This document shows, one piece after another, positions 1 to 32,000 of a stretch of DNA of 32,000 nt (position 1 is its first letter; each line of letters begins with the position of its first letter). The notes beneath the pieces are model-generated. The model saw only the letters and a program-made list of their open reading frames with translations. It was not told the origin of the DNA and did not search any database. Both the position numbers and the translations under genes were made by a program. This DNA is from Candidatus Saccharimonadota bacterium (GTDB taxonomy: Bacteria > Patescibacteriota > Gracilibacteria > Absconditabacterales > Absconditicoccaceae): NCBI GenBank assembly GCA_000503875.1, contig CP006913.1, forward strand, positions 270,001 through 302,000, written 5' to 3'.

Positions 1-46
1 TAAAAGAAAATGTAGATAAGACTACGGTTAATAAAATGGAGTACAT
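1..46 (-). CDS. 5' end of an ORF that runs off the window (MYSILLTVVLSTFSF..., hydrophobic/signal-like)
   Basis: ATG at 44-46 (minus strand), 11 nt downstream of the preceding minus-strand stop. Only 15 codons are visible. Confidence 0.25.
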   Translation of the reverse strand, partial: MYSILLTVVLSTFSF

Positions 47-57
47 AAAGCGTTTCA

Positions 58-1065
58 TTATGATTTTTTTGAAGTAAAAGGTTTGATAATGGTAGTAATA
101 AGAAGTACAAGTTCTCTCATTAATGGCAATGCAGGACTACGTCCCCATATCCAAAGCATAACACTATATCTTACCAAAACAAGAAGTACAGTAAGAATAG
201 CTAGTCATGAAATATGTCAGAGGTCTACTTGCCAAAGAAGGATAATAATACAAATCAATAATAATCAATATTGTCGCTGAATGCTTCCAAATTTTTTGAT
301 ATCATAGAGATATTGATATTCGTTTTTTATATTTTCAACTAAGAGTTTCCAATATGGACGATTGTAATTTCCGTGAAAAAGAAACACAATACTTCACCAT
401 ACATATCACCAAATTTCTTCTGGATTTTTGTAAAATAAAGAAGAAACAAATTCTGATATAGATTTGGGTATAATATCGATATTTCCAAGTAAAGTTACTA
501 TTCTTACGAGTATTACTATTCCTATAAATACAGCAAAAAATGGTGTTGGAGCAAGACATGATATACCAAATAAGATCCATAGAATAAGAGATTCTTTTAT
601 TAAGATATCAGGTGTATCAAAACTATGTTTCATATATCGAAGATAAACAGAATATCCAGGTAAATATGCTAAAAAAGAATGTGCTTTATCAAGATTAGTA
701 TATTCAGTGAATTCACTTTTGTTCGACAATGATGTTTTCTTTATTATTTTGATTTCTGTTATTGCTCAAATACATCCAATACCCAAAAGAGCAACCAAAA
801 TACCAACAATAACTTGATAAATTATAGTAAGAATATCTATTGTATAAAAATAAGAAAACAGACCACTCAATAATGCTAATCCTACCAAAATAAGATTGAT
901 CCATCCCAAAGAAATATATCCTTGAACAAAAAGACGATCTTGTTCGTTTAATTCGAGACTGTCTCCCTTAAGTAAATGGGTAATAAACGGAGAAAAAAAC
1001 ATCAAAGAAGCCAGACTTAATTGAATTTTTAATGATTGATTATTTGCTTTTTCCTCAATATTCAT
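58..1065 (-). CDS. polytopic integral membrane protein (~335 aa), immediately downstream of the VirB4-like ATPase
   Basis: Track ORFs 766..1065 and 406..729 are in the same frame and are joined by in-frame TGA codons (766-768, 406-408, 394-396, 265-267 and others). Hand translation continues to TAA at 58-60. It contains several long hydrophobic segments. Confidence 0.6.
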
Positions 1066-1100
1066 AAGATATATATATTCTAAGTGCTAAAAGCTAAGAG

Positions 1101-3140
1101 CTATTTTACATCAGTAGTAATAAATTCTTTCTCTGTTGGAGAAGCCAATACTTTGACCCCTACGTGCTGTTGCCCCGCAAAAATGAGCCCTTCTCCAACT
1201 CCACAAGATACCAACCTTCTTTGCTCTGCCTCAGAGAGTCCAAGCAGATCATTGAGCGCTTTGATAGAAGTGGTAGATTGTTTAAGCAATATTTGAAGAG
1301 ACGAGTTAGAAAGAATAGGTTTTCCATACTTACTTCTTACGAAGTCTTCAATATCTTGAGAGATGGTAGTAATTCCAAGTCCATATTTTCTGGCTCTTTT
1401 GATAAGTCCAAATAAGAATTCTGCAGAAGTTTCATGTTGAAGCATAATCCAGGCTTCATCACAGATAAGTAATCTTTTCTTTTTCTGTGATCTTACTTTG
1501 GTCCAGATAAAGTTCAAAACGTTAAACATCGCAGGTGTTTTTAATACTTCTTCAAGATCTCTAATACTAAAAACGGTCATTGCATTGTTGATATCTACGT
1601 TAGTATAGTTATTGAAAAGTTTTCCAAAGGTTCCAGTAACATATTTACTAAGTTTAAGCGCTATTTTTTCTCCACCATCCATACCATCCAAAACATTCAT
1701 CAAATCTTCCATCAATGGTGGTTGTTTGCCTTCATATGACATAGCTTCCAAAGAAAATCCTTTTAAGCTATAGGTACTTTGAATTGCTTTATCCAGAAGA
1801 GCTTCTTCTTCAGTACTTAAATCTCCAATCAATAATTTCACTAATCCAATAAGTGCCATAATCTGACTTCTCAAAAGATCTCCTTTCCCGTAATCAACAT
1901 CACTAATTTGTGGAGGAATATCAAATGGATTAATAAATTGTTGTGAACTTGTAGCAATATTTACATAGGTACCACCTACTTTTTGAGCAAGCGTTTTGTA
2001 TTCATTTTCAGGATCGATAATGATAATATCAATTCCATTGAGCAAATATCTAAGTACTTCAAGTTTAACAGTAAATGATTTTCCGGCTCCAGATGTCGCT
2101 AGTACACAACTGTTCATATTTGGAAGTTTGGAATTGAATCTATCGAAAATCACTAATCATCCTGTATGTTGATTAACTCCATATAGGATTCCTGTTTCAC
2201 TAATCATATCATTGGAAATAAAGGGAAAACTTCCCGCCAATGACGAAGTAACACTACTTCTCGTAATCCCTAGATCATCGATACACAAAGGAAGTGTACT
2301 GGTAAATCCTTCATCCATTCTTTGAGTAGCATTTTTCATTCTGATTCCATATCAAGAAATTTTTTGTTCAAGTTTCTTACCTTCTTCCTTGAGTTTATCT
2401 TCACTTTCTTCGTAAACATTCATATAATATCCTGTTTCAAAATATCTTTCTTCACGAGTTGTTAACTTTTCTCTAATCATTTCTACATCCTTGTATTGTT
2501 GTTCAACTTCAGTATCCAACGTGATTCCTTTTGACATAGCATCTTTAATTTCTGCTTTAAGTTGAGTTGCTCTAGTTTTGAGCATAGATTGGATTGCGGC
2601 ATCATCTTCTGGATAAATAAACCAGCTCATATCCCATTTTGCATGAAAACTCAAAATATCTCTTGTCCATAGAGCATCTATGTATGAAGGATAACTTTGA
2701 ACATAATAACTTTTTCCCAAAAGCCCAGAAGTATTGAAATGATTTGGCTTATGTTCCCAAAATGAAGGTGCTATGTGTGATTTATAATCATTGATGACAG
2801 AAATATATTGTTTTTCTACTTCAACGATATATTGTCTAAGTTTGCTAGTAAGCTTGCTATCGCTATATTGATCATCAGGTAATTCCAAAAGATATTTGAT
2901 TTGTTCTTTGAGATCTTTGTCTTTGATCATACTATTTTCTGGTATAACAGCTCATGGAGTACCATCTTTCTTTGGGGTTGCAGCACTAGGAAAAAGTGTT
3001 CAGAACAAACTATCAAAAATTCATCAAACACCTCCAGTTTTTTTTGGAGCATCTATTTGAAGAATATAGTTTGGCTTTCCTCAATTGGGAAGCTGTTGGC
3101 TATAATTAGTATCAAAAATAACGTCTTGAATAGTATTCAT
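1101..3140 (-). CDS. VirB4/TraC-like type IV secretion or conjugation AAA ATPase (~679 aa)
   Basis: Track ORFs 1101..2153, 2157..2339 and 2352..2930 share one frame and are joined by TGA at 2157-2159 and 2352-2354. The frame continues upstream through further TGAs to ATG at 3138-3140. Walker A is 'ATSGAGKSF', followed by 'IIIIDPENEY' and the Walker B-like 'RLLICDEAW', a layout typical of VirB4/DUF87 ATPases. Stop is TAG at 1101-1103. Confidence 0.75.
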
Positions 3141-3632: not shown

Positions 3633-3670
3633 CCCAGATCACCGTTTTCGGTAGGTCTGGGATTTTTTTT
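3633..3670 (+). terminator. rho-independent terminator-like hairpin
   Basis: 'cccaga' (3633-3638) pairs with 'tctggg' (3656-3661), with partial extension of the stem. It is followed by an 8-T run at 3663-3670. Confidence 0.55.
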
Positions 3671-4733
3671 ATACAATACTATCAGCTTTCCAATCTACTT
3701 TAAAATTTTTTCCGGTGAGATTGAGCTTGGTAAAAACTATATCCATAAAATTTTTCAAATCTTTGCCTTTGAGGATAATATTATATCTATATTTCCCAAA
3801 AATTTTATAAATCAATGGAGGCGTAGAATAAATTTCCAAATCATGAAATTGATATTTTTCTTTGAGGTAGAGGAGTTCCTTGTGGAGTTTATCTACCTTG
3901 GTGAACACCTTTTCCTCTACCTCGTTTTTGTAAAGAAGGACACAGAGGTCAGCGAATGGTGGATAATTATGGGCTTTTCTAAATTCATTTTCTTCTTTCC
4001 AAAAACCCTCTTCATCGAGTTTACAGGCTTGACGAATACTATATTGTTCAGGATTAAACGTTTGTACGACAAACTGAGCGTTGTCATGATGCAAAAACGT
4101 GTGATAAAGCAGATTAAAATTCTTCTCTCCAACATTATAATCAGGGATATTTAGTCCCATATCGGCATTAAAAAATACCACGAGATCAAGTGGATATGAT
4201 GGAATAGCTGTACTGAGAAGCGATGTTCCAATCAAAATAGGATATTCTCATTTATACTGATGAAGCTCTTCCATAATTTTCTTGATCTTATTTGTGGAAT
4301 TAGCTTTTTCTGATTCAATAATCAACGATTTGGCTCCAAATTCTTGTTGCAAATATTCAGCAACTTTTTGAGTTCCCATCCCGTATCATTTAATATTGTG
4401 TCCATGACAGTGAGCACAACTCTCCTGCACATTATATTGGGCCTTGCAAATATGACAGAGTCAAATCTGATCTCCGCTTTCCAGTTTATGATAACTGATG
4501 CTGACAGAACATTTCGTACACTGTGGTACAAATCAGCAATCGCGACAGATCATCCCACTAGAAAATCATTTCTTATCCACAATGATCCCGATTCTTTTGC
4601 CTTGTCTCAGATATTTTCCAATTCCTCTTTGCGCCAAAGTCGAGAAAAAATGCTCAACTTCTTGAGTCATATCTACGAGGAAAATATTTTTTTCCTTATC
4701 ATTGATCGTATGAGAGAATTGTTCGTAGTTCAT
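3669..4733 (-). CDS. priA: PriA-like primosomal protein, C-terminal half only (~354 aa): Cys-rich Zn region, helicase lobe 2 and C-terminal domain
   Basis: Hand translation starts 'MNYEQFSHTINDKEKNIFLVDMTQE...'. It continues with 'ICRDCGFVPQCTKCSVSISYH...LCHICKAQYNVQESCAHCHG...GYGMGTQKV...ILIGTSLL...LVVFFNADMGLNIPDY...YPPFADL...', which matches the PriA architecture downstream of helicase lobe 1. Track ORF 3669..4235 extends upstream through TGA codons to ATG at 4731-4733, and an in-frame TAA lies just upstream at 4755-4757. Confidence 0.7.
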
Positions 4734-4861
4734 AGAATGTATCCTAAGAATTTCTTAGGAGTTTTCAATAAAATAAGACGCCGAAATTTCCCAAGAAATT
4801 TAACGTCGTTTTTATCCAGCTTAGCTGAATAGGAATTTTTGAAATTCCTATATGATAAAGA

Positions 4862-5316: not shown

Positions 5317-5424
5317 AATTTTAGGGTTTTTTAGTTTTTTTTGTTTTACGTCGAATAGTTTATAGAAAAGTTAAGAAAAATGTCAAATACATTATCTGAA
5401 ATAAAAGATACACTCGTCAGCGCC

Positions 5425-6486
5425 ATTAAAAAGCTTCTTCTTTCTCCATTCTTTGGGAATTTGTTGTTCGCATTCCTTGTATGACGTGATAAATCAGCCT
5501 CCTATGCTATTTTGGATATGACTGATCAAATGGGTATAAATTTGTCCTAAGTCAATTCCTGTAAGTCTTTTTCCATACGGCGGATTGGAAACGATGGTAA
5601 GTTTTTCAAGGTCATAAGGAAGGAGGGGACTTAGAATATCATATTGGCTAAAAGTTATAGTATCAGCAACACCAGCTTTTTCTGCGTTAGCTGTAGCTAT
5701 TGCGAGCATTTTTTCATCACTATCAGAGCCATAAATCTGGTATGTTTTGGTGGTAAATTGTTTTTTTGTCGCTTCATTTTTTATCTCATCGAACATTGCC
5801 ATATCAATGGTTTTCCACTGTTGGAAGGCAAAACTTCTCCCAAGTCCTGGTGCGATATTTCTCGCAAGCAGGGCAGCTTCTATTGCCAGGGTTCACGAGC
5901 CGCAAAACGGATCCCAAAAGGGATTCCCAAATTTCCAGGTGCTCAGAACCACCAGTGCGGCTGCTAGATTTTCTTTCAAGGGCGCATCACCCGTCTGGAT
6001 TCTATATCCTCTCTGATGCAAAGGAGCTCATGAACTATTGATAAATATTGAGGCACGATTATCGATAATCATCACAAAAATATCTAAGGTCTCTTTTTTA
6101 GGGTCCATAGGCCAGGTTCCTGTGGGTGAAATTTGTTTATAGACGGCTTTATTGGTTATAGCCTGGATCGTTCTAGTACTTTCAAGTTTTGATCATTTGC
6201 TATGTACGGTTACTACAATATTTTGTCCTTCATTGACATAGTTTTTCCAATCCACAGTTTGCACCAAAGCAAACAATGCATCAAAATCAAAACATGGTCA
6301 AAAAGCAGCCTCCAAATAGACTTTATTTGCAATTCTGCTCCAAAGGTTTATACGCATCATATCGCGAAATTCTCCATCGACATAGACTCAAGTTTCAAAT
6401 CCATGATGAGGCGTAAGCCCAAGATATTGGAGTTCATTATTTACTAATTTACTCAGTCCAAAGGGACAACTTACAAGGAAACGCAT
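5425..6486 (-). CDS. THUMP-domain class I SAM-dependent RNA methyltransferase (COG0116, RlmL/YpsC-like), ~353 aa
   Basis: Starts '[20 protein letters not shown]...' and contains 'INLWSRIA', '[12 protein letters not shown]', motif I 'DPFCGS[TGA]TLAIEAA' and motif IV 'SNPPYGKR'. Track ORF 5494..5802 is only the C-terminal piece. The gene reads through TGA at 5494-5496 to TAA at 5425-5427. Confidence 0.8.
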
Positions 6487-6572
6487 AATGTAGTCAAAAG
6501 GTATAAAGTCATAAAATCATGTATGCTGATTTGGTTGTTCTTTTCAATATTAGAATCATATAAAAATAGAGA

Positions 6573-7009: not shown

Positions 7010-7046
7010 AAGCCATTGTTGTAACGCAACGATGGCTTTTGTTTTA
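7010..7046 (+). terminator. rho-independent terminator
   Basis: 'aagccattgttg' (7010-7021) pairs with 'caacgatggctt' (7027-7038) with one mismatch. A T-rich tract follows. Confidence 0.65.
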
Positions 7047-7104
7047 TTGAAAAATCATTACATTTCCCTATACACTCTATACAATTTACTGCTATTTCTT
7101 TTTT

Positions 7105-7791
7105 ATGCCACGTAGAAAACTTGTCAGATTCCAAGATAATACCAAAGATTCCCTTGTTATCCAACCAGGAAAATCAGAGTTTGAAACCGTTAGAAAAAAT
7201 TGGTCGACATTTTTTTGAAATAAAAATCCTCTAGTACTTGAATTAGCCTGTGGAAAAGGGGAGTACACGGTTGGGCTAGCCCCTCATTTTCCTGACAGAA
7301 ATTTCGTCGGTGTAGATATCAAAGGAAACAGACTTCGATACGGAGCCCAAGAAGCCAAAGATCTTTGACTGAAGAATGTAGGTTTTATACGCTGAATTAT
7401 TCAGAATATTCATGAGTTCTTTGATCCTCATACCATAGAAGAAATTTGGATTATTCATCCAGATCCAAGACCAAGAAATTCAGATACTCGCAGAAGATTA
7501 ACCTGTCCACGTTTTTTGATGATGTATGAAAAATTGCTTGTTCCATGAGGCTTGCTCAAACTCAAAACAGATGATGTTGATTTATTTACTTATTCTGTAG
7601 AAACGCTCAAAAACGAATGACGAACTATTCTGGACCAAACAGATGATCTCTATAACGACAGTTTATTAGCGGATCATTTCGATATCAAAACGCATTATGA
7701 ACAAAAATTTCATCAGCAATGAAGAACTATTCATTATCTCAAAGCAATAAAAAACAGCTTGACTTTTAATAGCCAAAACAGTATATATTAG
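7105..7791 (+). CDS. trmB: tRNA (guanine-N7)-methyltransferase
   Basis: Sequence reads '[12 protein letters not shown]...WSTFF[TGA][16 protein letters not shown]...GVDIKGNRL[CGA]YGA...IHPDPRPR...RRRLT...LKLKTDD...'. No ORF appears in the track because of repeated in-frame TGA. Stop is TAG at 7789-7791. Confidence 0.8.
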
Positions 7792-7944: not shown

Positions 7945-9327
<1,383 letters not shown>

Positions 9328-9337
9328 GGGAAGTAAG

Positions 9338-9384
9338 TAATAAATTAAATATTTTTTTATAGTGATCAACTAACAATTTCTGAT
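9338..9384. repeat. 47-bp direct repeat, copy A (non-coding duplicate of the atpG 3' end plus downstream sequence)
   Basis: Identical base for base to 10738-10784: 'taataaattaaatatttttttatagtgatcaactaacaatttctgat'. Flanking bases differ on both sides. The offset is exactly 1400 bp. Confidence 0.9.
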
Positions 9385-9398
9385 TATAATTGTTCTGA

Positions 9399-10727
9399 TT
9401 AATATGTTTGCGCACCTCACCATTCAATTGCTGAGAATCATGTTCTTGTGAATGATTGTAATTTTTGTTCTGGTATAGAAATAGGTTTATCTAGTCATTT
9501 GAATACCATAAATATTCTTTGTATACTATCTGGTTTTGGTATTATTGTTAGTTGAGCTTGGTCTGTATAGTCTTTTCCAGCGAATCTAATTGCAGCATAT
9601 GGATGCTGATTCATAAGTGGTAATCGATATACAATAAATTCATTATATTCATTAGGTGTTAAACCTAAATATGTAAGTTTTTCTTTGAGAAATGATGTAT
9701 AGTTCTTTTTTTCAATAACAAATCATTCATTTATACTCCATGGTTTCATTTTTTTTGCTTCCCAAAATATATATGAATATTTATTATCATCAGCTTTATT
9801 TATTAGTTCTCCATCTGGATTTGCAATTACATTTCGTGTATTGTTTTCTCAAATTTCAGGATATGTTGTGGAAAAAATTCATTTAAGATTTATTTTTACA
9901 CTTACTGCTGTAGGTTTTGTTGGATAGAGATATATTACAGGTTTTTCACCATAACCATCAGCTGTTTCGAATGTCGATAATAATGAACTACTTATAGATT
10001 TGATTTTTCAATCAACAATTTGTTTTGTTATTCAATATGTTTCATTATGTACCATATCTCATAAATATGATGTAATAATTACTCCAAAATAGTATGTGTT
10101 ATTTCATTTGTATGTATATTTATATTTCACTTCTCATCTTTCTGTTCATATCCAATTCCAGTATCCTGAATATGTTTTTGAATATCGGTTTGCATCTCTT
10201 TTTGATCCTGTTGTTAAAGAGAGAGCATAATCATATTTTTTATCATTAACTGCTCAATAATATTCATTTATTAGATCAATATTTTTGATATGATTAATTA
10301 CTTCTTGATCACTTAATTTCATATCTTGTAGAACTTTATTCATAAGCTCTGTATTTCCAAAAACACTATTATCATTATTATAATAATGATTTTTATAATC
10401 CCATACATTATAATAATAAATAGAAATTAATCTGGCTACATTTTTACTAACTCATCAGAAAAAGTTATTATAGTCTATACATCCTGCACCATCACATTCC
10501 AAGTTGGTATCAATTGTTGGTTTTGTATCTGTTTCTGCAGGAACAGACTTACTTTCCATAGTTTCTGTTGTATTTATTCCTTCAAGGGGTATTGAAGTAA
10601 TTGCTGGTATACCTACTAATTCTGGAGAATTATTTATTGCTGTATTATCAATTATTGGTTGTTTTTCTTGTACAGAACATCCAGTTAGAACTAACAATGG
10701 TATTATAGCAAATAAAATCTTTTTCAT
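9399..10727 (-). CDS. lipoprotein of unknown function (442 aa), inserted between atpG and atpD
   Basis: Track ORF 10455..10727 gives the signal peptide plus lipobox ('MKKILFAIIPLLVLTGC'). My hand translation continues in frame through about 15 TGA codons to TAA at 9399-9401. No standard-code ORF of 60 aa or more exists there, as expected for a TGA-rich gene. Confidence 0.65.
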
Positions 10728-10737
10728 TTGAGCAGAT

Positions 10738-10784
10738 TAATAAATTAAATATTTTTTTATAGTGATCAACTAACAATTTCTGAT
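10738..10784. repeat. 47-bp direct repeat, copy B (overlaps the last 9 codons and stop of atpG)
   Basis: Identical to 9338-9384. It covers the atpG 3' end (10757-10784) and the 19 nt downstream. Confidence 0.9.
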
Positions 10785-11659
10785 ATTTCTTGGGTAATTT
10801 TTTGTTGACGAGTTTTATTATACACGGTCTGTAATCCACTTACGATTTCACCACAATTATCTTTGGCATTTTTCATAGCGAGCATTCTTGAAGCTTGTTC
10901 TGATGTCTTATTATTCAATACCGCGTAATAAACGATATGATGCACAATATCTTCAATTAATGATTTTGCATATGTTTTTGGATCTGGTTCTAGTAATAGA
11001 TTGTTATTTGGTACCAAAGCAATATTATCTAACTTTTTATCTATATTTTCCAAGAACGCATCGAAACTTTCTTGATCAAGTGGATAGAGTTTAAATCTCA
11101 AAGGCACCTGCATTACTACATTCTTGAAGTAGTTGAAATAGATTTTGATCTTGGCATAACGATTTTCTTTGATTGCTTGTTTGATATAGACGAAGACGCT
11201 ATTCAAATCATTTTCTACAAAGTTGTCTTTGATATGACAGGTTCCTACGACATTCCATCCTGCTCCCACAAAAAAATCTAATCATTTTTTTCCGATAACA
11301 AAGATATCTACGTTTTCTTTTGCTTCTTTGATAGTTCCATATTTCTCTTGAAGATGCTTAATAAGTTTGCTATTGAGTGATCCACATAATCATTTATCCG
11401 TAGTTACCAAAATAATCAATCTTCTTCCAAAACTATTCTTTGTATCTTTGTTTGTTTGGTTATTTTCATCGAAAATATCTATATGATCTTTGATGGCATA
11501 TAAAACCCCCAAAAACTGCTTCATAAACCCTCTAAAATTGAGTGTTCTCTGTTTTAGTTTTTGTAATTTAACGGTAGAAACTATCTCCAAAGCCTTAATG
11601 ATCTTTTGAAGATTATGTACTGATTTTATTTTGGTCTTGATAAGCTTCGTATTAGCCAT
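10757..11659 (-). CDS. atpG: F1 ATP synthase gamma subunit (300 aa)
   Basis: 'MANTKLIKTKIKSVHNLQKIIKALEIVSTVKL...' continues through TGA at 11390-11392 into track ORF 10766..11269. It ends '...YNKTRQQKITQEISEIVS[TGA]SL' with TAA at 10757-10759. Confidence 0.9.
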
Positions 11660-12107
11660 GTCTCATCTTTTTTAGATGTAAATCAGCGGTAATTTTTTGT
11701 AATGACAAATAGGACTTTTCGATACTATCTATATCTCCTTGGAGTTTAATTTCTTTGATATCTCTTTCTAATTGTTCTTTCATTTTTTCTAGTTCTTGTA
11801 TATCAGATATAGGATTTGCAGTTGCTCCCGAGACAAAAACAATAAGATTCTCACCATCTACATAAAGAGATCAGTTGCCTATTGATAGATGAATTTCATC
11901 CTCTTTAAACAAAAAATCCGTACCTTCTATAAAAGTATTTCCTTGTTTATCTTTTGGTAAGAAACTCAAAATTCCTGGTTTCACGATACTTCCCAAAGGA
12001 ATATGATTTGGTAATACGGTAATTACTCCAGCTTCCGTAGGGATGGTCGTTTTTATTACCTCTCAGTGGAAAATTGTTTCTTGCGGTGAAATTAAAGTTA
12101 GCTGCAT
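11652..12107 (-). CDS. atpC: F1 ATP synthase epsilon subunit (151 aa)
   Basis: Hand translation reads 'MQLTLISPQETIFH[TGA]EVIKTTIPTEAGVITVLPNHIPLGSIVKPGILSF...HLSIGN[TGA]SLYVDGENLIVFVSGA...'. This matches the epsilon beta-sandwich plus helical tail. It is absent from the track because of TGA codons. Its 3' end overlaps the atpG start by 8 nt. Confidence 0.8.
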
Positions 12108-12129
12108 GTAGTATATATAAAACTAAAAT

Positions 12130-13638
12130 CTATTTCACTTCTATTTCTTCCACAACAATTGTAATTAATTCTTTGATTCACAATTCTATTTCGTCATCTA
12201 AAGATTGCTTCTTGATAATATTCTGATTTAATTTTTTGTGGGTTGTATCTAGTTTATTATATAAGTTTTTTTCAAATTCCAATATTTTATCCAACGGCAA
12301 GGTATCCATATATCAGTTGATACCAGCATATACTAATACTACTTGCTTATTGAATGGAATAGGGGAGTTATTGCTTTGTTTAAGCATTTCTACAAGCCTC
12401 TTTCCTTTTTCGATTTTATTTTGAGTTGAAATGTCTAGGTCTGAAGCGAATTGTGCGAAACTAGCCAACTCTCTAAAGGTTGCTAATTCTAGTCTAAGTT
12501 TACCAGCAATTTTTTTCATGATTTTGGTCTGGGCAGATCATCCTACACGAGAAACAGAGAGTCCTACATTGATTGCAGGTCTGATTCATGAGTTGAAAAG
12601 ATCAGTTTCTAAGAATATTTGTCCGTCTGTGATAGAAATTACATTGGTTGGAATATATGCGGAAACGTCAGAATCCAAAGTTTCAATAATAGGGAGAGCG
12701 GTCAAACTTCCTCCACCATGTTCATCGCTAAGTCTTGCAGCTCTTTCCAAAAGTTTGGAATGCAAGTAAAATACATCACCAGGATAGGCTTCTCTTCCAG
12801 GAGGTCTTCTCAAAAGGAGGGAAACTTCTCTATAAGCAACGGCATGTTTCGTCAAATCATCATAGATGATCAACGCATCTTTTCCATGTTCCATAAAATA
12901 TTCTCCTAAAGCACATCCTACGTAGGGAGCAATATATTGCAATACGGATGGTGCATTAGCCGGAGCATTAACAACGATGGTGTAATCCATAGCTCATTTC
13001 TCTTTGAGCATTTCTACGATTCTTCTTACTTTACTATCTTTTTGCCCAATCGCAACATAGATACAGATCACATCTTTTCCTTTTTGGTGGATGATAGTAT
13101 CCGTTGCAATAGTGGTTTTACCTGTTTGTCTATTTCAGATAATCAATTCTCTCTGTCCTCTTCCAATTGGCACCATGGTATCAATTGCTTTAATACCAGT
13201 TTCCAAAGGTGTATTTACTGATTTTCTAGCAATAACTCCAGGAGCAATTTTTTCAACGGGAGAAAATGCTGTTGGCGTGATTTTACCTTCATCATCTATA
13301 GGATTACCCAAGGCATCCAAGACTCTACCCAAATATTCTTCTCCTACTCAGACGTCCAAGACTTTTCCCATAGCTTTTACTACACTTCCTTGTCAGAGAC
13401 CTTCTTGGCTTCCCAATACGAGAATTCCGACAGTATCTGGAGAAAGATCGAGCACAAGCCCCTTAACTCCATTTTCAAATTCTACAATTTCAGAAAACAT
13501 CGCATTGTCCAAACCAATCACGGTTGCGACACCATCTTTCAATTCTAGGATTTCTCCTTTTTTGGAAAACTGTTGTTTGAGGTCTTTACCATCCAAGTCT
13601 TTTTCAATTTTTTTGAGAATATCCGATACGAGATCCAT
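12130..13638 (-). CDS. atpA: F1 ATP synthase alpha subunit (502 aa)
   Basis: Track ORFs 13393..13638, 13135..13332, 12586..12990 and 12313..12519 share one frame and are joined by TGA. It contains 'GRGQRELII[TGA]NRQTGKT' and '[28 protein letters not shown]'. Stop is TAG at 12130-12132. Confidence 0.95.
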
Positions 13639-13674
13639 AGGTAATTAAGATAATGATATAAATTTACTATAATA

Positions 13675-14133: not shown

Positions 14134-14141
14134 GAGGGATA

Positions 14142-14633: not shown

Positions 14634-14660
14634 AATTTTTTCATAAAACAAAGATAAAAT

Positions 14661-15104: not shown

Positions 15105-15131
15105 AATTCTATAATTATTATATAAAAGATA

Positions 15132-17663: not shown

Positions 17664-17691
17664 TTGACATTTAATAGATAATATTTATAAT
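17664..17691 (+). promoter_or_regulatory. sigma-70-like promoter (TTGACA, 16-nt spacer, TATAAT)
   Basis: TTGACA at 17664-17669 and TATAAT at 17686-17691, 32 nt upstream of the ATG at 17724. Confidence 0.5.
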
Positions 17692-17723
17692 TACAAAAAT
17701 TATTTATATTATTGATTTTTTGT

Positions 17724-19808
17724 ATGCAAAAAATTTTGCTTCAGAATTCTTATTTCAATATTTTGGAAATGCTTGATCAACAGCCATGATCAGAGCAAAT
17801 GCTCAATGCATTAATCCAATTAGAATCAGATATTAAAGCTGGAATTTTTGATATATTACAAAATTACCAAAAGCAAAACAAAGAAATGGAAAATACAAAA
17901 ACATACCAAGCAATACATGGAACAGTACTTGCATTAAGAAATACGTTGGAAGCTAGAATTATGCAAATAGCAACTGGCGATAAAGTAAGTATTCATGATT
18001 TATTGAATCAATGTATTATCAATCTCAATAAAATATTGGAAAATCAAGAAAATATTGAAGATATATTAAAAAATATGAAAATTTATTTTAGAAAAGTAGA
18101 AGAAACTATTCTTCCGCCAGATGAACAACAAGTTCAGACAGGTTCTTGAAATTGATGATTTGAAAAGAAAGAATGATGTAATAAATTTGGTTCATTAATA
18201 ACATTGCTTAGAAAAAATGAAATATATACAGATGATTTGTTTGTGATTACTTGAGTAAATCAATTAAATCAAATGAGAGAAGAAACATATCTTTATATTC
18301 ACATCCCAAGAATAAATAAAACAATTCTGATTAATAATGGTTATGGAGAAAAAACATTCATTTATGATGGCTATATAGAAGTAGAATATTTTTTGAATAC
18401 TACAAAAAAATGAATCAAACAAAATGAAAATATTGTTAGCGTGAATTTTGACTATGAAGACAGTGCAAATTGGGAAACTAAGATGAGATATTATTTGTTT
18501 GAAAAAGGAAAAGAAAATAAAGATGGATGATCGGTTTGAAAAAAAGTAAATATAAAAGATTTTTTAAGAGTGCCAGAATGATGGTATACGAATAAATCAT
18601 TGGCTACTAATTTGAGCGTTGCACCAAATACAATAAAAAATATAGTTAAACTATATAGAGAAACAAATCCAGAATATTTAAAAAAATATTTAGATAATCA
18701 CAGTAATCTACGAGAATATTATGCGCCAGAATTGTGTAAAATTATAGAAGAAGAAATAAAAAATAGGTGAGAAGAATCTCCAGAATGATGGTTTACAAAT
18801 AATGCTTTAGCTGAAAAATTGGAAAAAAACAAAGATGCTATAAAAAAAATAGCAAAAAAATATATCGTAACAAATCCTGAACGATTCAAGGAATATATAA
18901 ATAAATTATGAAGAATAAGAGAATATTATCATCCAGAATTGTGTAAAATTATAGAAGAAGAAATAGAAAATAGATGAGAAAAAGCTCCAGAGTGATGGAA
19001 AAACAATAATAAATTAGCTAGTGATTTATGAGTAGATTTTGATAGTGTGAAAAAAATAGCTGAAAGTTATAGATGAAATAGTCTAGATTGGTTTGTATAT
19101 TACTTAGATAATATAAACAACTTACGCGAATACTATGCACCAGAGTTATGTAAGATTGTAGAAGAAGAAATAGAAATAAAAAATAGATGAGAAAAAGCTC
19201 CAGAGTGATGGAAAAACAATAATAAATTAAGATTAGAATTGACGGAATCTTTTTATGTAGTAAAAGATATTGCAAATAAATATAGAGAAACAAATCTATT
19301 GTGGTTTAAACAATATCTAGATAATCATAATAATTTACGAGAATATTATCATCCAGAGTTATGTGAGATAATAAGAAAGGAAGCGAAGAATAGAGGAGAA
19401 AAGTCACCAAAGTGATGGGAAACAAATAAATGATTAGCCGACAAAATAGGAACATCAGAACAATCTATAAAATTGGTAATAGAAAAATATAGAGAAAAAA
19501 ACACAGAACGATTTAAAGAATATTTAGATAAAAATAATAGATTACGAGAACATTATCATCCAGAATTATGTAAAATAGTAAAAAAAGAAATAGAAAATAG
19601 ATGAGAAAAATCACCAAAATGACGAAACACAAATAAATGATTAGCAAAAGAAATTGGTGTAGATCCCCTTACTATAAAAGGACGTACCGAGAAATATAGA
19701 GAAACAAATCCAGAACGATTTAAGGACTATTTAGATAAGATGAATAGAAAGACAATTCATTATAGTCCAGAATTCTGTGAAATAATTAAAAAAGAACTCC
19801 AAAAATAA
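17724..19808 (+). CDS. large lineage-specific protein (694 aa): ~280-aa N-terminal region plus six tandem ~70-aa repeats
   Basis: Track ORF 17799..18149 is only a fragment. Hand translation from ATG 17724 runs through more than 30 in-frame TGA codons to TAA at 19806-19808. The repeat consensus is 'PEGW.TN..LA..L......IK.I..KYRETNPEWFK.YLD..NNLREYY.PELC.II..EI.NRGEK'. Confidence 0.7.
18570..19808 (+). repeat. six in-frame tandem coding repeats, period about 210-216 nt
   Basis: Example: 'aatagatgagaaaaagctccagagtgatggaaaaacaataataaatta' recurs near 18969 and 19182. The motif 'ccagaattgtgtaaaattatagaagaagaaata' also recurs. Confidence 0.8.
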
Positions 19809-19892
19809 TCAGATTTTAAAAAATATAATGAAAATGGTTTCCGAATTAGTATAGTGACATATGATGTTTCATTTTATGTCGCAGTTTTCCTT

Positions 19893-21638
19893 ATGCAATA
19901 CCTCAAAGTAACCAATCTTACCAAATCATATACGGACAAATCACTAGTTGATCATGTTGATTTTACGATTACCAAAAATCAGAAGATTGCTTTGATTGCC
20001 AAAAATGGAGCGGGGAAAACAACCTTGCTCAAATTATTGATGAAGGAAATCGATCTGACGGATGGGGAAATAGATTGGAGAGAAGATATAAAAATCTGAT
20101 ATTTATGACAAGAGTATAAACTCGACAAACACGTAACGGTTCGTGATTTTCTTTTTGATTTTGATACCAATGCGAATCGGGAACAAGAAGTTGAACTCAA
20201 TATTAGTGTGGATAAATTGAGAATCAAATCGTATCTTGGACAAACGATGGATACGTTATCATGAGGGGAAGCAAAGCGTGTGATGTTGGCGAAGGTGTTG
20301 GCGGGAAATCCTTCAATGTTGGTACTAGATGAGCCAACGAATCATCTTGATCTCGATATGATTGAATGGTTAGAACGATATCTCAAGAAACATCATATTA
20401 CCTTGTTTATGGTGACCCATGATAGATATTTTCTGGAAAGAGTATGTACCGATATTTGGGAGTTGGAAAGAGGAAAAATACATCAATATACAGGAAATTA
20501 TTCTTATTTTTTGGAGAAAAAAGCTATTCGCGAAGAAAACGAAAAAATAGAGATGCACAAACTTCACCAGTTGTTCAAAAAAGAGCTTGCCTGGATTCGT
20601 AGAGCTCCGCAGGGGAGACAAACCAAAGCCACCTTTAGAGAAAAAAGATTCTCCGATATCGAAGAAAAATTTGATACCAAGAGAGATGTTCGTTTTTCGG
20701 AAAGCGCAAAATTAGAACTCGGTGTAGAAGAAAGACGCTTATGAGGCAAAATATTGCATATCAAAAATATACAAAAATCTTTCGACACCAAAAAAATAGT
20801 CAATGATTTTTCTCACGAATGTAGACACGGTGAACGTATAGGAATTATCGGAAAAAACGGAGTCGGAAAATCAACATTTATAAATATGATTATGGGCCAA
20901 GAAACCTTGGACAAAGGAACTATTGAAGCAGGGGAGTCTGTGGTTTTTGGATATTACGAACAAAAACAAATCGATTTTCCAACAGACAAAAGACTTATAG
21001 ACATTGTTCCCGATCCAAAACTTCTCGAAAAATTTCTTTTTTTCCCCAAGCAACAACATCAATTTGCTCATAGCTTAAGCGGTGGAGAAAAAAGAAGATT
21101 ATATATGCTAGCTATCCTGCAAAAGAACCCAAACTTTTTAATTATGGATGAGCCAACCAACGATTTGGACTTAATAACTTTGGGAGTGTTAGAAGATTTT
21201 CTTTCCAATTACAAAGGCTGCTTGATCGTGGTTTCTCATGATAGATTTTTTATGGATAAAATTGTGGACCATATCTTCGTCTTCGAAGGCGAGGGCGTAA
21301 TCAATGACTTCCGATGAACCTATTCCCAGTACAAATCCGCCCAAGAAGAAAAGCTCAAAAAAGGCAAAAAAGAAAATAAACCGCTAGCAAAACAAGTTGA
21401 AGCCCCACTTTCCGACAAACCAAAGAAACTTTCGTATATGGAACAACGTGAACTTGATCAGTTGAGTAAAGATATTCAAACATTAGAAAAGAGAAAAGAT
21501 GAAATTCAGATTCTATTTAATGATCCAAATTGCCCTTTTGATGATATTAAGAAACTTGGAATCGAACTCAGTACCTTGATTAAACACCTCGAAATTAAAG
21601 AAGGAAGATGGTTTGAATTAATAGAAAGAGCTTGATAG
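19893..21638 (+). CDS. ABC-F family ATPase (two ABC domains, linker and C-terminal coiled coil; ~581 aa)
   Basis: Track ORFs 19854..20099, 20280..20744, 20754..21317 and 21438..21635 share one frame across TGA codons. Walker A motifs are 'AKNGAGKTT' and 'GKNGVGKST'. Signature motifs are 'LS[TGA]GE' and 'LSGGE'. It also has 'THDRYFL' and 'SHDRFFM'. Stop is TAG at 21636-21638. Confidence 0.85.
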
Positions 21639-22443: not shown

Positions 22444-23112
22444 CAAAAAAAGACCCTAGAATAAATTCTAAGGCCCTTGGACTTTATATAGAGCAAGGAC
22501 ATATGTTGATAAACTAATGAAATACAATACAAGGAATAAAATACCCAAAGGTAAAATACATCAAGTAAAATATAACAAAGCAAGAAGGCACAAGTCCTAT
22601 GTTGATCTGACGCTATTTTTACTATAATGCAAAGCTGGTTTTATCCAACACTACATTTTACAAAGCAGACAGTTTAATCTTTAATCTTTTGTCTGATATC
22701 TCTTTTGCAAGAAATACAATATTTGTAAGAGAACAGAAATTCTCAAAAGCCTGAATAAACAGAAATATCGCTATACAGATATACGCTATGTCCAGATTCA
22801 AACCAACATCTTATTGCTAAGACATCAATCAAAATAAGAAGATAGATATACGCCATACATGATATAAAAACAGATGCAGGTCAATTTGTTCTATAATAAA
22901 GATCCTCACCATCAGATAATAAGGTTTTAACGCCCTTCATCTTTTGATGACAATATAAGTATATAGGAAAATGTTTGTTTTGTCAAATTTTTAATAACTT
23001 TTTTTAGATACAAGTAAATACGGGTATTAATCTATAAATCAAAGTGTTTACTTGATTTTTTTTAATGAATATATAATCTTATTTTCATATTTTTATTTTT
23101 TTGAAAGAGAAT

Positions 23113-24312
23113 ATGATATTTGCAATAATTCTGCTTATTTTAGGATTGCTTTTGCTTGGTTTTTGAGCTAATTATCTGATTACTTCTAGTGTGAGAATCG
23201 CAAAACATTTTCATGTTTCTAGTTTGCTTATTGGATTAACTATTATAGCGATAGGAACTTCGGCACCAGAATTATTTCTTTCTGGATTGGCTGCAATTCA
23301 ATGAAATTGAGCACTTTCAGTAGGAAATGTAATAGGATCAAATATATTTAATCTGGGGTTTATTCTTGGTCTTAGTGCTATTATTATGCCAATATTCATC
23401 AAGAAAAAAATTATCTATAGAGATGGTTTGGTTTTACTTATTATTACTGCAGCTGTTCTTGCAATGCTATGGGATCAACACGTTGCTCGGCGAGAAGGAG
23501 CAATTTTACTTGCAGGATTAGTCTGATATAATGGATATCTTCGAATCAAAAAAGATGCACCAACAGATGAAGAAGTTGAAATATCAAAACCAAAACTCAA
23601 AAATTTAGCATATGTTGCACTTGGATTAGTAGCTCTTGCATCTGTTCATGCAACAACTATCGATGGTAATTTTACTGTATCATTTGGTATGTCCTTATAT
23701 TCTGGAATATTTCTGGGGATATTAGGATTATCATTTCTCGTAGCAATTTTCAAAAAAGATATTCCAGAATTTCATGATATTGGAAATGGAACTTTGATGA
23801 ATATTATTAAGTTGATAGCAAGTCTTGGTATATTAGTGTTGGCTTCAGAATTAGTAGTGAGTGCTGCTGTATATATTGCACAGACTTTTTGAATTTCAGA
23901 ACGAGCAATAGGTGCAACGATAGTTGCTGCAGGAACCAGTTTGCCAGAAGTAGCTGCAACAGTAGCAGCTATTCTCAAGAAAAATTATGATATGGGAGTA
24001 GGAAATGTCATAGGGTCAGATATTTTCAATATTTTATGAATTATAGGAATAAGTTCAGTTATAGCACCATTAAATCTTACTTCAAAATGTGTTGTTTTGA
24101 CTCAGTGTGATACATGATTTTGGCAGTTGTTATTTAGAGATAATATATTTTCTGTATTGATTTTATTTTTAACTTTGGGAATAACATTTCTTTTTATGAG
24201 AACAGGTTGGAAATTATCAAAAAGAGAATGAATTATATTATTTGTTTTTGCATTACTCAGAATGATTTTTGAAATTAATCCTAATTTTTTTACTAAATGG
24301 TTTGGTGGCTAA
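23113..24312 (+). CDS. CaCA-family cation/Ca2+ exchanger (YrbG-like, 399 aa)
   Basis: Two alpha-repeats are present: 'LLIGLTIIAIGTSAPEL...GNVIGSNIFN' and 'AIGATIVAAGTSLPEV...GNVIGSDIFN'. It reads through several TGA codons; track ORF 23689..23892 is an internal fragment. Confidence 0.8.
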
Positions 24313-26538: not shown

Positions 26539-28269
26539 ATGTTATTTAGTGAATGTTGATTAAAACCAGGTTTGTTAAAATCTTTGGCTGCTATGGGATA
26601 TACCCAAGCTACACCAATCCAAGAGAAAGTAATGAAAATAGCGCTCACATGAGCAAATATTGTATGACAATCTCAAACAGGAACAGGAAAAACTGCGGCC
26701 TTTTTGCTTCCTATTCTCAATAAAATAGATACCAATAGAAAATCAGTGCAAGTATTAATTCTTGCTCCAACTAGAGAATTAGTAGTCCAAATTTGAGAAG
26801 AAATCAGAAATCTGACAAAATTTTACGGAGTGAGTTTTGCTTGTCTTTACGGAGGAGCAAGTCCTAACGTTCAAAAAGAAAAACTCAGAAGAAGCCCTGC
26901 AATTGTTATTGCAACTCCAGGAAGATTAATGGATTTTATGAATCAAAAAGTGATAGATGTGAGAACGGTTGATTATTTTATTCTCGACGAAGTTGATAGA
27001 ATGTTGGATATGGGATTTGTCCGCGATATCAAAAAAATTCGAGCTCAACTTCCATCAGTAAAGCAGACACTTACTTTTTCTGCTACTATGAACAATGATA
27101 TGAAGACTATTATCAAAGATCATATTTCTACCTACGAATTTATCAAAATAGGAGAGGAAGTGACGGTTGATAAAATTCATCACAGATATATTCCCATCGA
27201 ACACGAGCAAAAGCTTTTCAACGTGATTAAACTTATCGAAGCTCATCCAGATGATAGAATTATTATTTTTACGCATACCAAAAGAAATACAAAAACTATT
27301 CATCAAATTTTAATCTGAGATGGTTTCAACGCAGGATTGTTAAATGGGGATATGGCTCAAGGAAAAAGACAGTCAACCCTCAACGATTTTAAAATAAACA
27401 AAACACAAATACTGGTTACAACAGATGTTGCTGCCAGAGGACTAAATATGGAAAATGTAGGATTGGTTATCAACTTCGATGTGCCTGCTGATGCTAAGAG
27501 TTATATTCATAGAATTGGAAGAACAGGAAGAGCAGGAGCAGAAGGAAAAGCTATTATGTTAGTTTCTCCGCTTGAAAGACCTTTACTTCAAGATATAGAA
27601 AAAGTTCACAAAATCAGAATACAACAATCCGAACATATTGCACAAATAGATAGACAAGGATGATATGGAAATCTTCGTCTTGATAGATCAACTGACAAAA
27701 AAGGTGGGAAGAAAATGATGCCCAGAAAGCGCCTAAGTCCTACCCAAAAATATGGAAAGCTTCCCACATTCGAAGATCAAAAACCTATAAAAACAGAAAA
27801 TAATTTTCGCAGCAATCCAAACCATAAAAAACACGAACGTAGTTTATGAGCTCCCAACAGAGGAGTAGATTGATATAAATGATCAAAACCGGATAGCAGA
27901 CCAGAAGGAAGATCATTTGGAGCGAGACCAGATAACAGAGGACCACGCCCAGATAGCAGATGACCACGCCCAGAAGGGAAATCATATGGAGCGAGACCAG
28001 ACAGCAGACCATCAACAGGATGATATAAATGATCAAAACCAGATAGCAGATGACCAAGACCAGAAGGGAAATCATACGGAGCAAGACCAGATAGTAGACC
28101 ATCAACAGGATGATATAAATGATCAAAACCGGATAGCAGAGGACCACGCCCAGAAGGGAAATCATATGGAGCAAGACCAGATAGCAGAGGACCAAGATCA
28201 GAAGAAAAATCATACGGGGCAAAGCCACAGTGATCATTTAGAGGTGCAGGAAAACCAAGACACAGATAA
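26539..28269 (+). CDS. DEAD-box ATP-dependent RNA helicase with a repetitive basic Gly/Arg/Pro-rich C-terminal tail (576 aa)
   Basis: Contains 'GYTQATPIQ', motif I '[TGA][12 protein letters not shown]', 'PTRELVVQI', motif II '[11 protein letters not shown]', 'SAT' and motif VI '[10 protein letters not shown]'. Track ORFs 26830..27318 and 27337..27663 are fragments. The frame continues through the repeat region to TAA at 28267-28269. Confidence 0.9.
27868..28200 (+). repeat. in-frame tandem repeats encoding '[30 protein letters not shown]'-type units
   Basis: 'tgatataaatgatcaaaacc(g/a)gatagcaga' occurs at 27870, 28021 and 28111. 'ccagaagggaaatcata(t/c)gga' recurs three times. Confidence 0.85.
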
Positions 28270-29771: not shown

Positions 29772-29800
29772 GGTATTCTAAAAAAAATATAAATCAAATT

Positions 29801-31621
29801 CTACTCTAATTTTCCTGATTTTTGAGCAACCTTTCTTGCATTGTCGGTAAGGTATATTTTTCTAATTCTGATATTTTTTGGAGTAATTTCCACATATTCA
29901 TCTTGTCCAATATAGGCAAGACAATCTTCTAAGGTCATAGGTACAATGGGTTCTAATCTCATTGCTTCATCATTTCCACTTTCTCTTACATTTGTTTGTT
30001 GTTTATTCTTTGTAAGATTAACACTCATATCACCAGGTTTTGCACTTTCACCAACAACCATTCCTTCATACATTTCTGAAGCTGGTTGGATAAAAATTAC
30101 CCCTCTTTCTTGAAGCTTCCAAATACTATATTTCATACATTTACCCGTTTCTTGACTAATCATTGATCCTGTTGTTCTTCTAGGAATATCTCCTTTATGA
30201 GCAGTATAATGAGAGAAAGAACTATACATAATTCATTCTCCTTTGGTAAGAAGTACAAACTTAGATCTAAATCCAAGTAATCATCTTGTTGGTACATCAA
30301 ATTGAAGCGTAGTTAGTCCATGATGAGTCATCATATCGGTCATTTGTCCTTTTCTTTTGGCAAGAAGATCGATAATAGTTCAAGACATTGCTTCATTAAC
30401 ACTGATAACTACGTGTTCAATTGGTTCCATTTTTTGTCCGTCTTCCATCTTGAATATTACTTGAGGAGCAGAAACTTGAAGTTCAAATCCTTCTCTTCTC
30501 ATAGTTTCAATCAAAACAGACAGATGAAGTTCTCATCTTCCTGCAACAGTAAATCTATTTCCTCATTTATCAAAATCGATTTCTAGTCCTACATTTGTTT
30601 GAAGTTCTTTTTGAAGTCTTTCCATAATATTTCTAGAAGTTACCATTTTCCCTTCACGTCATGCAAAAGGTGAATCATTAACTAGAAAATCCATTTTTAA
30701 TGTTGGTGCATCTACTTTGATATGAGGAAATGGTTCGCATCATTCGACACCAATTGTTTCTCCTACATAGATATTAGCCAATCATGCAATAGTTGCAATA
30801 TCTCAACATTGAGCAGTTTGTGTTTCTACTCTTGAAAGTCCAAGGGTAGTATAAAGTTTTGAAATTCTTCCTTTTCTTTTGTTACCTGCATTATCAAATA
30901 CGACAACATCTTGTCCTGTACGAACAGTTCATTCATAAATTCTTCAAATACCAAGTCTACCTACAAAATCATCATAACCTAAATTAGCAACTTGCATACG
31001 AAATGGTTTGTCAGAATAATCTGGTGCTTCAGGAACAACTTTTTCTATAAGTTCGAACAAAGGAAAAATATTTCACGTTTTTCTAGCTTCTTCAAGATCT
31101 TTGAGTTCGTTGAATGCATATCCACCTTTTGCACTACAGTAAATAACAGGAAAATCCATTTGTTCATCAGTAGCTCATAGGGTGAAAAACAATTCAAAAA
31201 GCTGATCTACTACCCAATTAGGTCTAGCAGTATCTTTATCAATTTTATTGATAACAACGATTGGATTAATACCAAGTTCCAATGACTTTTTGAGTACAAA
31301 TTTAGTTTGTGGCATAGGTCATTCATAGGCATCAACGATCAAAAGTACGCTATCAACCATTTTGAGAGCTCTTTCTACTTCACTTCCAAAATCTGCATGT
31401 CCTGGAGTATCTATAATATTAATAGTATTTCCATTGTAATGCACAGACGTATTTTTGGAATAAATAGTAATACCTCTTTCTTTTTCTTGGTCATTACTAT
31501 CCATAATTAAAGTCTGATCTTCCATTTGTTTCATGGTTCCTGACTGAGTAAGGAATGCATCAACCAAGGTTGTTTTACCATGATCTACATGGGCAATAAT
31601 TGCTATATTTCTAATAGCCAT
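29801..31621 (-). CDS. typA: translational GTPase BipA/TypA (606 aa)
   Basis: Track ORFs 31319..31621 ('[21 protein letters not shown]...[14 protein letters not shown]') and 29801..30229 are the two ends. Hand translation links them in one frame through many TGA codons, for example 'VGRLGI[TGA]RIYE[TGA]TV'. Stop is TAG at 29801-29803. Confidence 0.9.
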
Positions 31622-31639
31622 AATAATAGTCTATTGAAT

Positions 31640-31661
31640 AAAAAAAACCGCACAAATGCGG
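31640..31661 (-). promoter_or_regulatory. terminator-like hairpin in the bipA leader (minus-strand orientation)
   Basis: 'ccgca' (31648-31652) pairs with 'tgcgg' (31657-31661). On the minus strand an 8-T run follows (31640-31647). It ends 19 nt upstream of the bipA ATG. Confidence 0.35.
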
Positions 31662-31854
31662 ATCTATATAAATAATCTGCGTTTTTTTGATAATATACTT
31701 AGTGCGAGTATAAGGAATTGTAGAACAAAAGCAATAGTGATTCAAAAGCAATAGTATTTCATAAATATTACCAAAAATCTTTGGATATTACCTTGATTAA
31801 AAATCAGAATTATATACAACAATTACCGAAAGTTTTATTTTTTATAGATACGAA

Positions 31855-32000
31855 ATGTATCGTACGCATACGTGTTGACAACTTACTTGAAAAAATGCAT
31901 GAGAGGCTATTGTCCTTTCAGGATGGGTAAATAAAGTAAGAAATTTAGGAGGAATGACCTTTATCGATCTTCGTGATAGATATGGGATAACTCAAGTAAC
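31855..32000 (+). CDS. aspS: aspartyl-tRNA synthetase, N-terminal fragment (continues beyond the window)
   Basis: 'MYRTHTC[TGA]QLT[TGA]KNA[TGA][32 protein letters not shown]' matches the AspRS N-terminal OB-fold signature. Confidence 0.85.

Follow-up and report, generated by a model that had tools for sequence, protein, structure and literature searches.

Codon comparisons in a 32-kb segment of an absconditabacterial genome point to UGA as a glycine codon and to CGA and CGG as tryptophan codons

The genetic code used in a 32-kb stretch of bacterial DNA, referred to below as the window, was analyzed from the codons of its genes. The window has a GC content of 32% and matches positions 31983-63982 (reversed) of contig DPJE01000002.1 (152,556 bp) from the metagenome-assembled genome (MAG) GCA_003543185.1. 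It was located there by an exact-sequence match via EngB, the sole sizeable gene free of TGA. An independent assembly at ENA, made from sediment metagenome SRR944699, contains identical DNA on a 91-kb contig, and an assembly error is therefore ruled out. When TAA and TAG alone were taken as stops, long open reading frames (ORFs) covered about 95% of the window, and 27 genes with 9,530 codons were obtained (each counted from its first ATG). They encode a VirB4/TraG-like ATPase, a short PriA, an RlmL/THUMP methyltransferase, TrmB, the full F-type ATP synthase operon, a photolyase, two ABC-F proteins, EngB, a Na/Ca exchanger, MtgA, a DEAD-box helicase, BipA and the start of AspRS. The coordinates of the relevant features are given in Table 1. 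These genes are very probably written in a variant code that involves three codons, in which UGA would be read as glycine, CGA and CGG as tryptophan, and only UAA and UAG as stops.

Table 1. Positions of genes, codons and repeat columns discussed in the text (window coordinates unless stated otherwise; SAM, S-adenosylmethionine)
Feature	Position	Strand	Observation
PriA homolog	3669-4754	-	354 aa
RlmL/THUMP-type methyltransferase (gene 5392-6549)	TGA 5893-5895	-	Gly of SAM-binding motif DPFCGS-G-T
TrmB (gene 7012-7791)	TGA 7216-7218	+	Gly of WxTxF-G-N
ATP synthase operon	7945-15944	-	Order a, c, b, delta, alpha, epsilon, gamma, [lipoprotein], beta
atpD (F1 beta)	7945-9369	-	6 TGA; on Gly: 8566-8568, 8542-8544, 9127-9129, 8074-8076, 8041-8043
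Predicted lipoprotein	9399-10736	-	442 aa, 15 TGA
atpA (F1 alpha)	12130-13644	-	8 TGA, 5 on Gly, including 13135-13137 in ELII-G-NRQTGKT
atpE (double-hairpin c subunit)	14661-15131	-	7 TGA; in helix 1, 2 of 3 TGAs on E. coli GxxxG glycines
Photolyase	16298-17659	+	10 CGA, one TGG
Photolyase, CGA on invariant Trp	16328-16330, 17081-17083, 17165-17167, 17261-17263, 17324-17326, 17393-17395, 17399-17401	+
69-codon repeat protein	17691-19808	+	694 aa, 24 TGA
69-codon repeat protein, five paralogous units	18699-19739	+	Column 23: TGA in four units, GGA in one (19395-19397)
69-codon repeat protein, column 30	CGA 19623-19625	+	TGG in four units, CGA in one
69-codon repeat protein, column 61	CGA 18882-18884, 19509-19511, 19716-19718; TGG 19089-19091, 19302-19304	+
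69-codon repeat protein, column 4	AGA 18918-18920; CGC 19125-19127	+	CGA in the three other units
ABC-F protein 1 (gene 19809-21638), CGG	20178-20180	+	Relatives: TGG, TGG, CGA
ABC-F protein 1, TGA	20262-20264	+	Gly of ABC signature LS-G-GE
Region between EngB and Na/Ca exchanger	22444-23076		About 630 bp
Na/Ca exchanger, CGG	23488-23490	+	Three relatives, all TGG
DEAD-box helicase tail, 30-codon tandem repeats	27949-28222	+	TGA 27961-27963 and 28051-28053 paralogous to GGA 28141-28143
BipA/TypA	29801-31630	-	14 TGA, 10 on Gly of E. coli BipA
AspRS (start 31855, past the window to 33648 in contig coordinates)	TGA 31876-31878	+	Gly near N terminus
Second repeat protein (right flank)	37669-39771 (contig-equivalent)		'WMKTATF' units
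Right-flank repeat column	38413-39442 (contig-equivalent)		TGA in units 3 and 7; TGG in five units and CGG in one elsewhere

TGA was found in frame 175 times, in 23 of the 27 genes, and TAA or TAG not once. Every gene ended with TAA (21 genes) or TAG (6 genes), as an initial annotation of this DNA had stated, and these ends coincided with the C termini of solved homologs (atpD, BipA, atpA, photolyase and AspRS among those checked). The Pfam domains of the housekeeping genes ran uninterrupted across the TGAs. The further statements of that annotation, namely that apparent gene fragments fuse to full-length genes, that coding density is very high and that the standard-code ORF track is an artefact, were all borne out once only TAA and TAG were taken as stops. 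Two genes, atpE (14661-14666) and ABC-F1 (21633-21638), end with TGA-TAA and TGA-TAG, respectively. A TGA just before the true stop may be due to chance or may be a relic of a former TGA stop.

If the TGAs were real stops, the genes would have to be pseudogenes, be expressed by programmed readthrough or with selenocysteine, or contain sequencing or assembly errors. The gene calls of the NCBI record, made with table 11, are fragments only and fit such an explanation; the ENA calls on the same DNA are full length. The probability of this explanation is nevertheless negligible, considering the 175 TGAs versus no TAA or TAG in frame, the presence of TGA in essential genes (ATP synthase, AspRS and RF1), the identical DNA in the independent ENA assembly, and the conservation of TGA positions, or their exchange with GGN, in relatives. 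Selenocysteine recoding was ruled out in particular, as the TGAs are distributed over 23 genes and none was opposite Cys or selenocysteine in a homolog.

For the comparison with homologs, TGA, and later also CGA and CGG, was masked as X before the proteins were aligned to solved structures from organisms using the standard code. A Codetta-style tally comprised 3,126 aligned positions of atpD, BipA, atpA, the DEAD helicase, ABC-F1, photolyase, MtgA and TrmB. TGA was opposite glycine at 36 of 53 sites in this tally, against a glycine background of 8.1% (binomial p = 4.5e-27). The window's own glycine codons were opposite glycine at 84 of 108 (GGA), 34 of 45 (GGT), 14 of 17 (GGG) and 8 of 13 (GGC) sites. 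TGA was also opposite glycine at five of eight sites in AspRS, at two of six in the THUMP methyltransferase, and at five of six in the c, gamma and epsilon subunits compared with those of E. coli. When all standard-code references were pooled, glycine was opposite 48 of 73 TGAs, a rate like that of the window's GGN codons. The other partners of TGA were D, N, S, K, P and similar residues at variable or loop positions. Tryptophan, which the initial annotation had named as the residue that would speak against glycine in TGA columns, was opposite none of the 73. Reading TGA as glycine raised the glycine content from 4.9% to 6.8% and made TGA the second most used glycine codon of the window, with 27% of all glycine codons.

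The motifs in which TGA had been placed on conserved glycines could be confirmed with a single exception. All eight quoted coordinates were right, seven being TGA on the coding strand and the eighth (28141-28143) GGA. Both TGAs of FTQA-G-SEVSALL-G-R in atpD and the one of ELII-G-xRQTGKT in atpA fell on glycines of the standard-code references, as did those of the methyltransferase motif DPxCGS-G-T, the ABC signature LS-G-GE, F-G-N of TrmB and AspRS. For helix 1 of the c subunit the proposed glycines were found at two of the three TGAs; the third was not on a glycine of the E. coli protein.

Protein columns of close relatives were not accepted as an independent line of evidence, since the mixtures of G and W and of W and R in them proved to be database translation artefacts. 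Codons were compared directly in the DNA instead. This code-free comparison included five relatives (L003, L004, L053, L054 and L055) with 48-99% protein identity per gene. Of the cells aligned with a TGA of the window, 152 were TGA, 76 were GGN and one was TGG. For GGN codons of the window, the partner was TGA in 215 cells and never TGG. In total, TGA and GGN were exchanged in 291 cells and TGA and TGG in a single one. Counted by distinct site, GGN was present in at least one relative at 61 of 132 TGA sites, and TGG at one of 132. The near absence of exchange between TGA and TGG, which are only one transition apart, excludes tryptophan as the meaning of UGA. Together with the 48 of 73 TGAs opposite glycine, these counts uphold the claim that UGA is a glycine codon throughout the window.

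The same counts bear on table 4, in which UGA encodes tryptophan as in Mycoplasma and which is used by large protein databases for many contigs of this kind. In its favor, tryptophan is found at TGA columns in database proteins of relatives. BipA proteins of relatives carry either G or W at these columns, while NCBI entries translated with table 25 carry G throughout. The sum of W and G in BipA is nearly constant (about 53) while W varies from 0 to 35; the tryptophans are therefore artefacts of translation with table 4 and are no evidence for UGA as a tryptophan codon. With this, the lack of any tryptophan opposite TGA in standard-code references and the single TGA/TGG cell, table 4 is practically out of the question. 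In one large protein collection the TGAs of relatives are given as W (table 4) and CGA and CGG as R, which produces false W and R columns in family alignments.

Internal repeats gave a further comparison that is free of any assumption about the code. The paralogy of TGA and GGA in the tail of the DEAD-box helicase, noted in the initial annotation, is real and extends to a second TGA codon. Five paralogous units of a repeat protein encoded between the photolyase and ABC-F1 genes likewise have TGA and GGA in the same column (column 23). This protein consists of 69-amino-acid tandem repeats with a weak match to HTH_3, and nowhere else in the window is TGA as dense as in its gene; the photolyase and ABC-F1 genes are adjacent in relatives L053 and L055. 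A repeat column in the right flank has TGA in two units and TGG or CGG in the others. As the two units with TGA are sister copies, this is probably a single change from tryptophan to glycine. Columns of this type are suited for examining wobble ambiguity between UGA and UGG.

The pairing of CGA with TGG surfaced unexpectedly in the first codon comparison with the relatives. CGA occurred 40 times and CGG twice in the 27 genes (about 42 and 2 per 10,000 codons), while AGA was the main arginine codon (268 of 341 canonical arginine codons). The photolyase gene alone contains a quarter of the CGA codons, and seven of these ten fall on invariant tryptophans of the Synechococcus photolyase, in the motifs WxRxDLR, ELAWREF, FPW, GWMHNR, IDWR and GGWQWSAS. 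In eight of the ten columns tryptophan was the majority residue, being present in 84-107 of 114 homologs with 42-48% identity. A minority of homologs had arginine in exactly these columns, a pattern typical of other Absconditabacteria whose CGA and CGG codons were translated as arginine in the databases. In the eight-protein tally CGA was opposite tryptophan at 7 of 17 sites and opposite arginine at 2 of 17, with a tryptophan background of 0.9% (p = 1e-10). As controls, TGG was opposite tryptophan at 5 of 12 sites and AGA opposite arginine at 76 of 121. In a check of all 64 codons, those aligned at 10 or more positions showed no reassignment apart from the ones described.

The DNA of the relatives gave the same picture. 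CGA or CGG was exchanged for TGG in 30 cells and for a canonical arginine codon in 4, while arginine codons were aligned with arginine codons in 535. TGG was present at 9 of 29 CGA sites, in eight genes, and AGR or CGY at none. By comparison, 57 CGY and 225 AGR sites never paired with TGG. Both aligned CGG sites, in ABC-F1 and the Na/Ca exchanger, paired with TGG (5 TGG cells, 1 CGA cell); no CGG codon was covered by an alignment with a PDB reference. CGA and TGG differ by two changes, and a synonymous route from CGA via CGG to TGG exists only if both CGR codons encode tryptophan. Two columns of the 69-codon repeat protein (30 and 61) also combine CGA and TGG. In the second repeat protein, located 5.7 kb past the right end of the window and unrelated to the first, one column contains CGA three times, CGG twice and TGG twice, and another contains TGG seven times and CGA once. 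When CGR was read as tryptophan, the tryptophan content rose from 0.69% to 1.13%, and CGA accounted for 37% of the tryptophan codons in the window and for 10 of 11 in the photolyase.

Several observations weigh against this reading of CGA and CGG. All seven matches of CGA to tryptophan in solved structures come from the photolyase, and the other 12 aligned CGA codons are at positions that vary and are occupied by L, R, E, Y, Q or V, with arginine opposite 3 of 19 CGA codons overall. Column 4 of the 69-codon repeat protein combines CGA with AGA and CGC, which fits an ancestral arginine or a residual ambiguity. The support for CGG as a tryptophan codon consists of the two sites in the window and the repeat columns of the flank. 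In addition, the window and its flanks (about 46 kb, from 6.7 kb on the left to 7.8 kb on the right) yielded no tRNA gene.

One alternative is plain NCBI table 25, in which UGA is glycine but CGA and CGG are arginine, and the pattern in the photolyase would then reflect real substitutions of tryptophan by arginine. The arginines opposite 3 of 19 CGA codons and the mixed column 4 agree with it. Such replacements do occur, since in TrmB the conserved tryptophan of DPWP is replaced by an arginine ('HPDPRPR', region of 7447-7449) whose codon is neither CGA nor CGG; this looks like a real replacement and not like recoding. However, plain table 25 would require that seven catalytically or structurally invariant tryptophans of the photolyase had all become arginine in a gene that is 75-90% identical in relatives. 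It is also at odds with the presence of TGG, and the absence of canonical arginine codons, at the CGA sites in spite of the two-nucleotide distance between CGA and TGG, and with the fact that canonical arginine codons were never opposite TGG. Moreover, Codetta independently called CGA as tryptophan for GCA_003543185.1. Plain table 25 was therefore considered very unlikely.

A transitional state, in which CGA and perhaps CGG are decoded ambiguously as both tryptophan and arginine while capture is still in progress, would lead to a mixed protein population. Ambiguous decoding would explain column 4 and the arginines opposite CGA, and CGA and CGG changes have been described as early-stage with ambiguity possible (Shulgina & Eddy 2021, eLife 10:e71402). 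On the other hand, CGA is the dominant tryptophan codon of the photolyase (10 versus 1 TGG) and is used at invariant sites, where arginine would probably be deleterious, and no exchange with canonical arginine codons was seen at the 29 CGA sites. Ambiguity is thus unlikely, and full reassignment of UGA, CGA and CGG was retained as the best explanation. If decoding were ambiguous after all, the two repeat proteins would provide a natural system to measure dual decoding.

The decoding machinery was examined in the flanks, in the relatives and in public genomes. No tRNA gene was present in the corresponding loci of the five relatives. In the left flank, 5.2-6.2 kb from the window (locus L006, about 487-1560, minus strand), a release factor gene was found that was identified as prfA (RF1) with the NCBIfam models PRK00591 (432 bits, cut-off 400) and TIGR00019 (425 bits, cut-off 423). 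The prfB model gave 247 bits versus a cut-off of 370. The 'PAT' tripeptide of RF1 is present, and the universal GGQ motif is encoded as GGN-TGA-CAA (G-TGA-Q), so that the termination factor itself depends on the reading of UGA as glycine. RF1 recognizes UAA and UAG, and RF2 terminates at UGA.

GTDB species representatives were scanned once with a glycine-type tRNA(UCA) pattern that had been validated on canonical tRNA-Gly backbones; MAG GCA_003543185.1, which failed GTDB quality control, is outside this set. The scan gave 43 matches, 17 of which were a 79-nt tRNA(UCA) in candidate phyla radiation (CPR) MAGs labelled Gracilibacteria, Peribacteria or simply bacterium. This tRNA was 96% conserved in an alignment of 12 sequences; its acceptor stem reads GCG...CGCU, its CCA is encoded, and in 15 of the 17 MAGs it was located 11-16 nt from tRNA-Gly(GCC). 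MAGs labelled 'uncultured Candidatus Peribacteria bacterium' (L011, L031, L033, L035, L037, L038, L040 and L041) carry the glycine-type tRNA(UCA) beside tRNA-Gly(GCC). They probably use UGA as a glycine codon and may be mislabelled.

Based on the literature and on sister lineages, UGA would be read in this organism by a tRNA(UCA) with the glycine identity elements G1:C72, C2:G71, G3:C70 and U73, and RF2 would have been lost. The decoders of CGA and CGG would be tRNA(UCG) and tRNA(CCG) whose arginine identity has given way to that of tryptophan, with G73 and without A20. The low GC content of 32% may have made CGA, CGG and UGA rare enough for capture.

Some features of the window are unusual apart from the code. 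The order of the ATP synthase genes is non-canonical, and the position of epsilon between alpha and gamma is shared by relatives L053 and L054. The gene between atpG and atpD encodes a predicted lipoprotein with a signal peptide and lipobox and without a Pfam domain. As atpG and atpD are adjacent in L053 and L054, this gene appears to have been inserted into the operon in a particular lineage. The c subunit is a tandem double hairpin of 147 amino acids with two PF00137 stretches, which is unusual for an F-type operon. A local alignment of its halves with BLOSUM62 scored 140, and the glutamate of the ion-binding 'ALVES' is kept in both; the c subunits of relatives have 149-150 amino acids.

The short PriA homolog contains a Cys-rich zinc-finger region and a PriA_C domain, the remainder being without a Pfam match, and is equally long in L053 and L055. 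Between the EngB and Na/Ca exchanger genes no convincing ORF was found, and a Rfam scan of the whole window gave no match there or elsewhere; in relative L003 these two genes abut.

The choice of table has direct consequences for the annotation of such DNA. Calls with table 11 shatter the genes at every TGA, table 4 introduces tryptophan for glycine, and table 25 introduces arginine for tryptophan. A gene re-call with table 25, which the initial annotation had proposed, would yield the right gene boundaries but place arginine at about 42 tryptophan positions of the window. Translation with table 25 would thus be wrong at about 0.4% of codons, including invariant catalytic tryptophans of the photolyase. 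Structure prediction, construction of hidden Markov models and conservation analysis with absconditabacterial proteins inherit these errors. A table-prediction tool of 2026 chooses among tables 4, 11 and 25 only.

The MAG GCA_003543185.1 is labelled 'Candidatus Gracilibacteria bacterium' at NCBI, since renamed Altimarinota. The closest named BipA homologs were from Ca. Absconditabacterales, with 72-78% identity, versus 64% for Gracilibacteria. The initial annotation had assigned the DNA to Absconditabacteria (SR1) or Gracilibacteria; an SR1/Gracilibacteria-type organism was confirmed, and the reassignment of CGR settles the choice for Absconditabacteria. On the BipA identities, the additional CGR reassignment and the listing in a published source table, the window is assigned to the Absconditabacteria (SR1-type, CPR/Patescibacteria).

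UGA as a glycine codon (table 25) was established in 2013 for SR1 and Gracilibacteria (Campbell et al. 2013, Rinke et al. 2013). For Absconditabacteria, a code with UGA as glycine and CGA and CGG as tryptophan was predicted later (Shulgina & Eddy 2021, eLife 10:e71402). The genome concerned here is listed in their sheet 'Absconditabacteria CGR->Trp' with UGA as glycine, CGA as tryptophan and CGG as '?'. Their source table gives one tRNA(UCG), one tRNA(CCG), no tRNA(ACG), a tRNA(CCA), a GC content of 0.31 and a completeness of 0.50. Both the 2013 assignment and that of 2021 were already known, and nothing fundamental is new in this respect. New are the evidence at the level of the window that points to CGG as a tryptophan codon in a genome for which Codetta was undecided, and the estimated extent of mistranslation by table 25. 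The exchanged codons and the internal paralogs of the window are compact evidence, independent of any assumed code, for a predicted sense-codon reassignment.

Compared with known codes, the window agrees best with that predicted for Absconditabacteria. All three assignments, the low GC content and AGA as the main arginine codon are shared, CGA behaves as tryptophan, and lineage membership is supported by the BipA identities and the source table. The difference concerns CGG, which Codetta left open for GCA_003543185.1, whereas here the CGG sites and the flank repeats, a small sample, pair with TGG. With NCBI table 25 the window shares UGA as glycine, termination at UAA and UAG only, the CPR lineage and a small genome of low GC content. 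The label 'table 25' used in the initial annotation is correct for these features, but not for the remaining codons, as CGA and CGG are kept as arginine in that table and behave as tryptophan in the window. To our knowledge, no NCBI table combines UGA as glycine with CGA and CGG as tryptophan.

Table 4 of Mycoplasma and Spiroplasma, the default of gene callers for such contigs, likewise has UGA as a sense codon and is used in reduced genomes of low GC content, but its UGA is tryptophan and not glycine. A capture of an arginine CGN codon by tryptophan at low GC content is also known from Anaerococcus and RFN20 Bacilli (Shulgina & Eddy 2021). In those bacteria only CGG has changed and tRNA(UCG) is absent, whereas here the reassignment would mainly concern CGA, and the presence of a tRNA(UCG) is reported.

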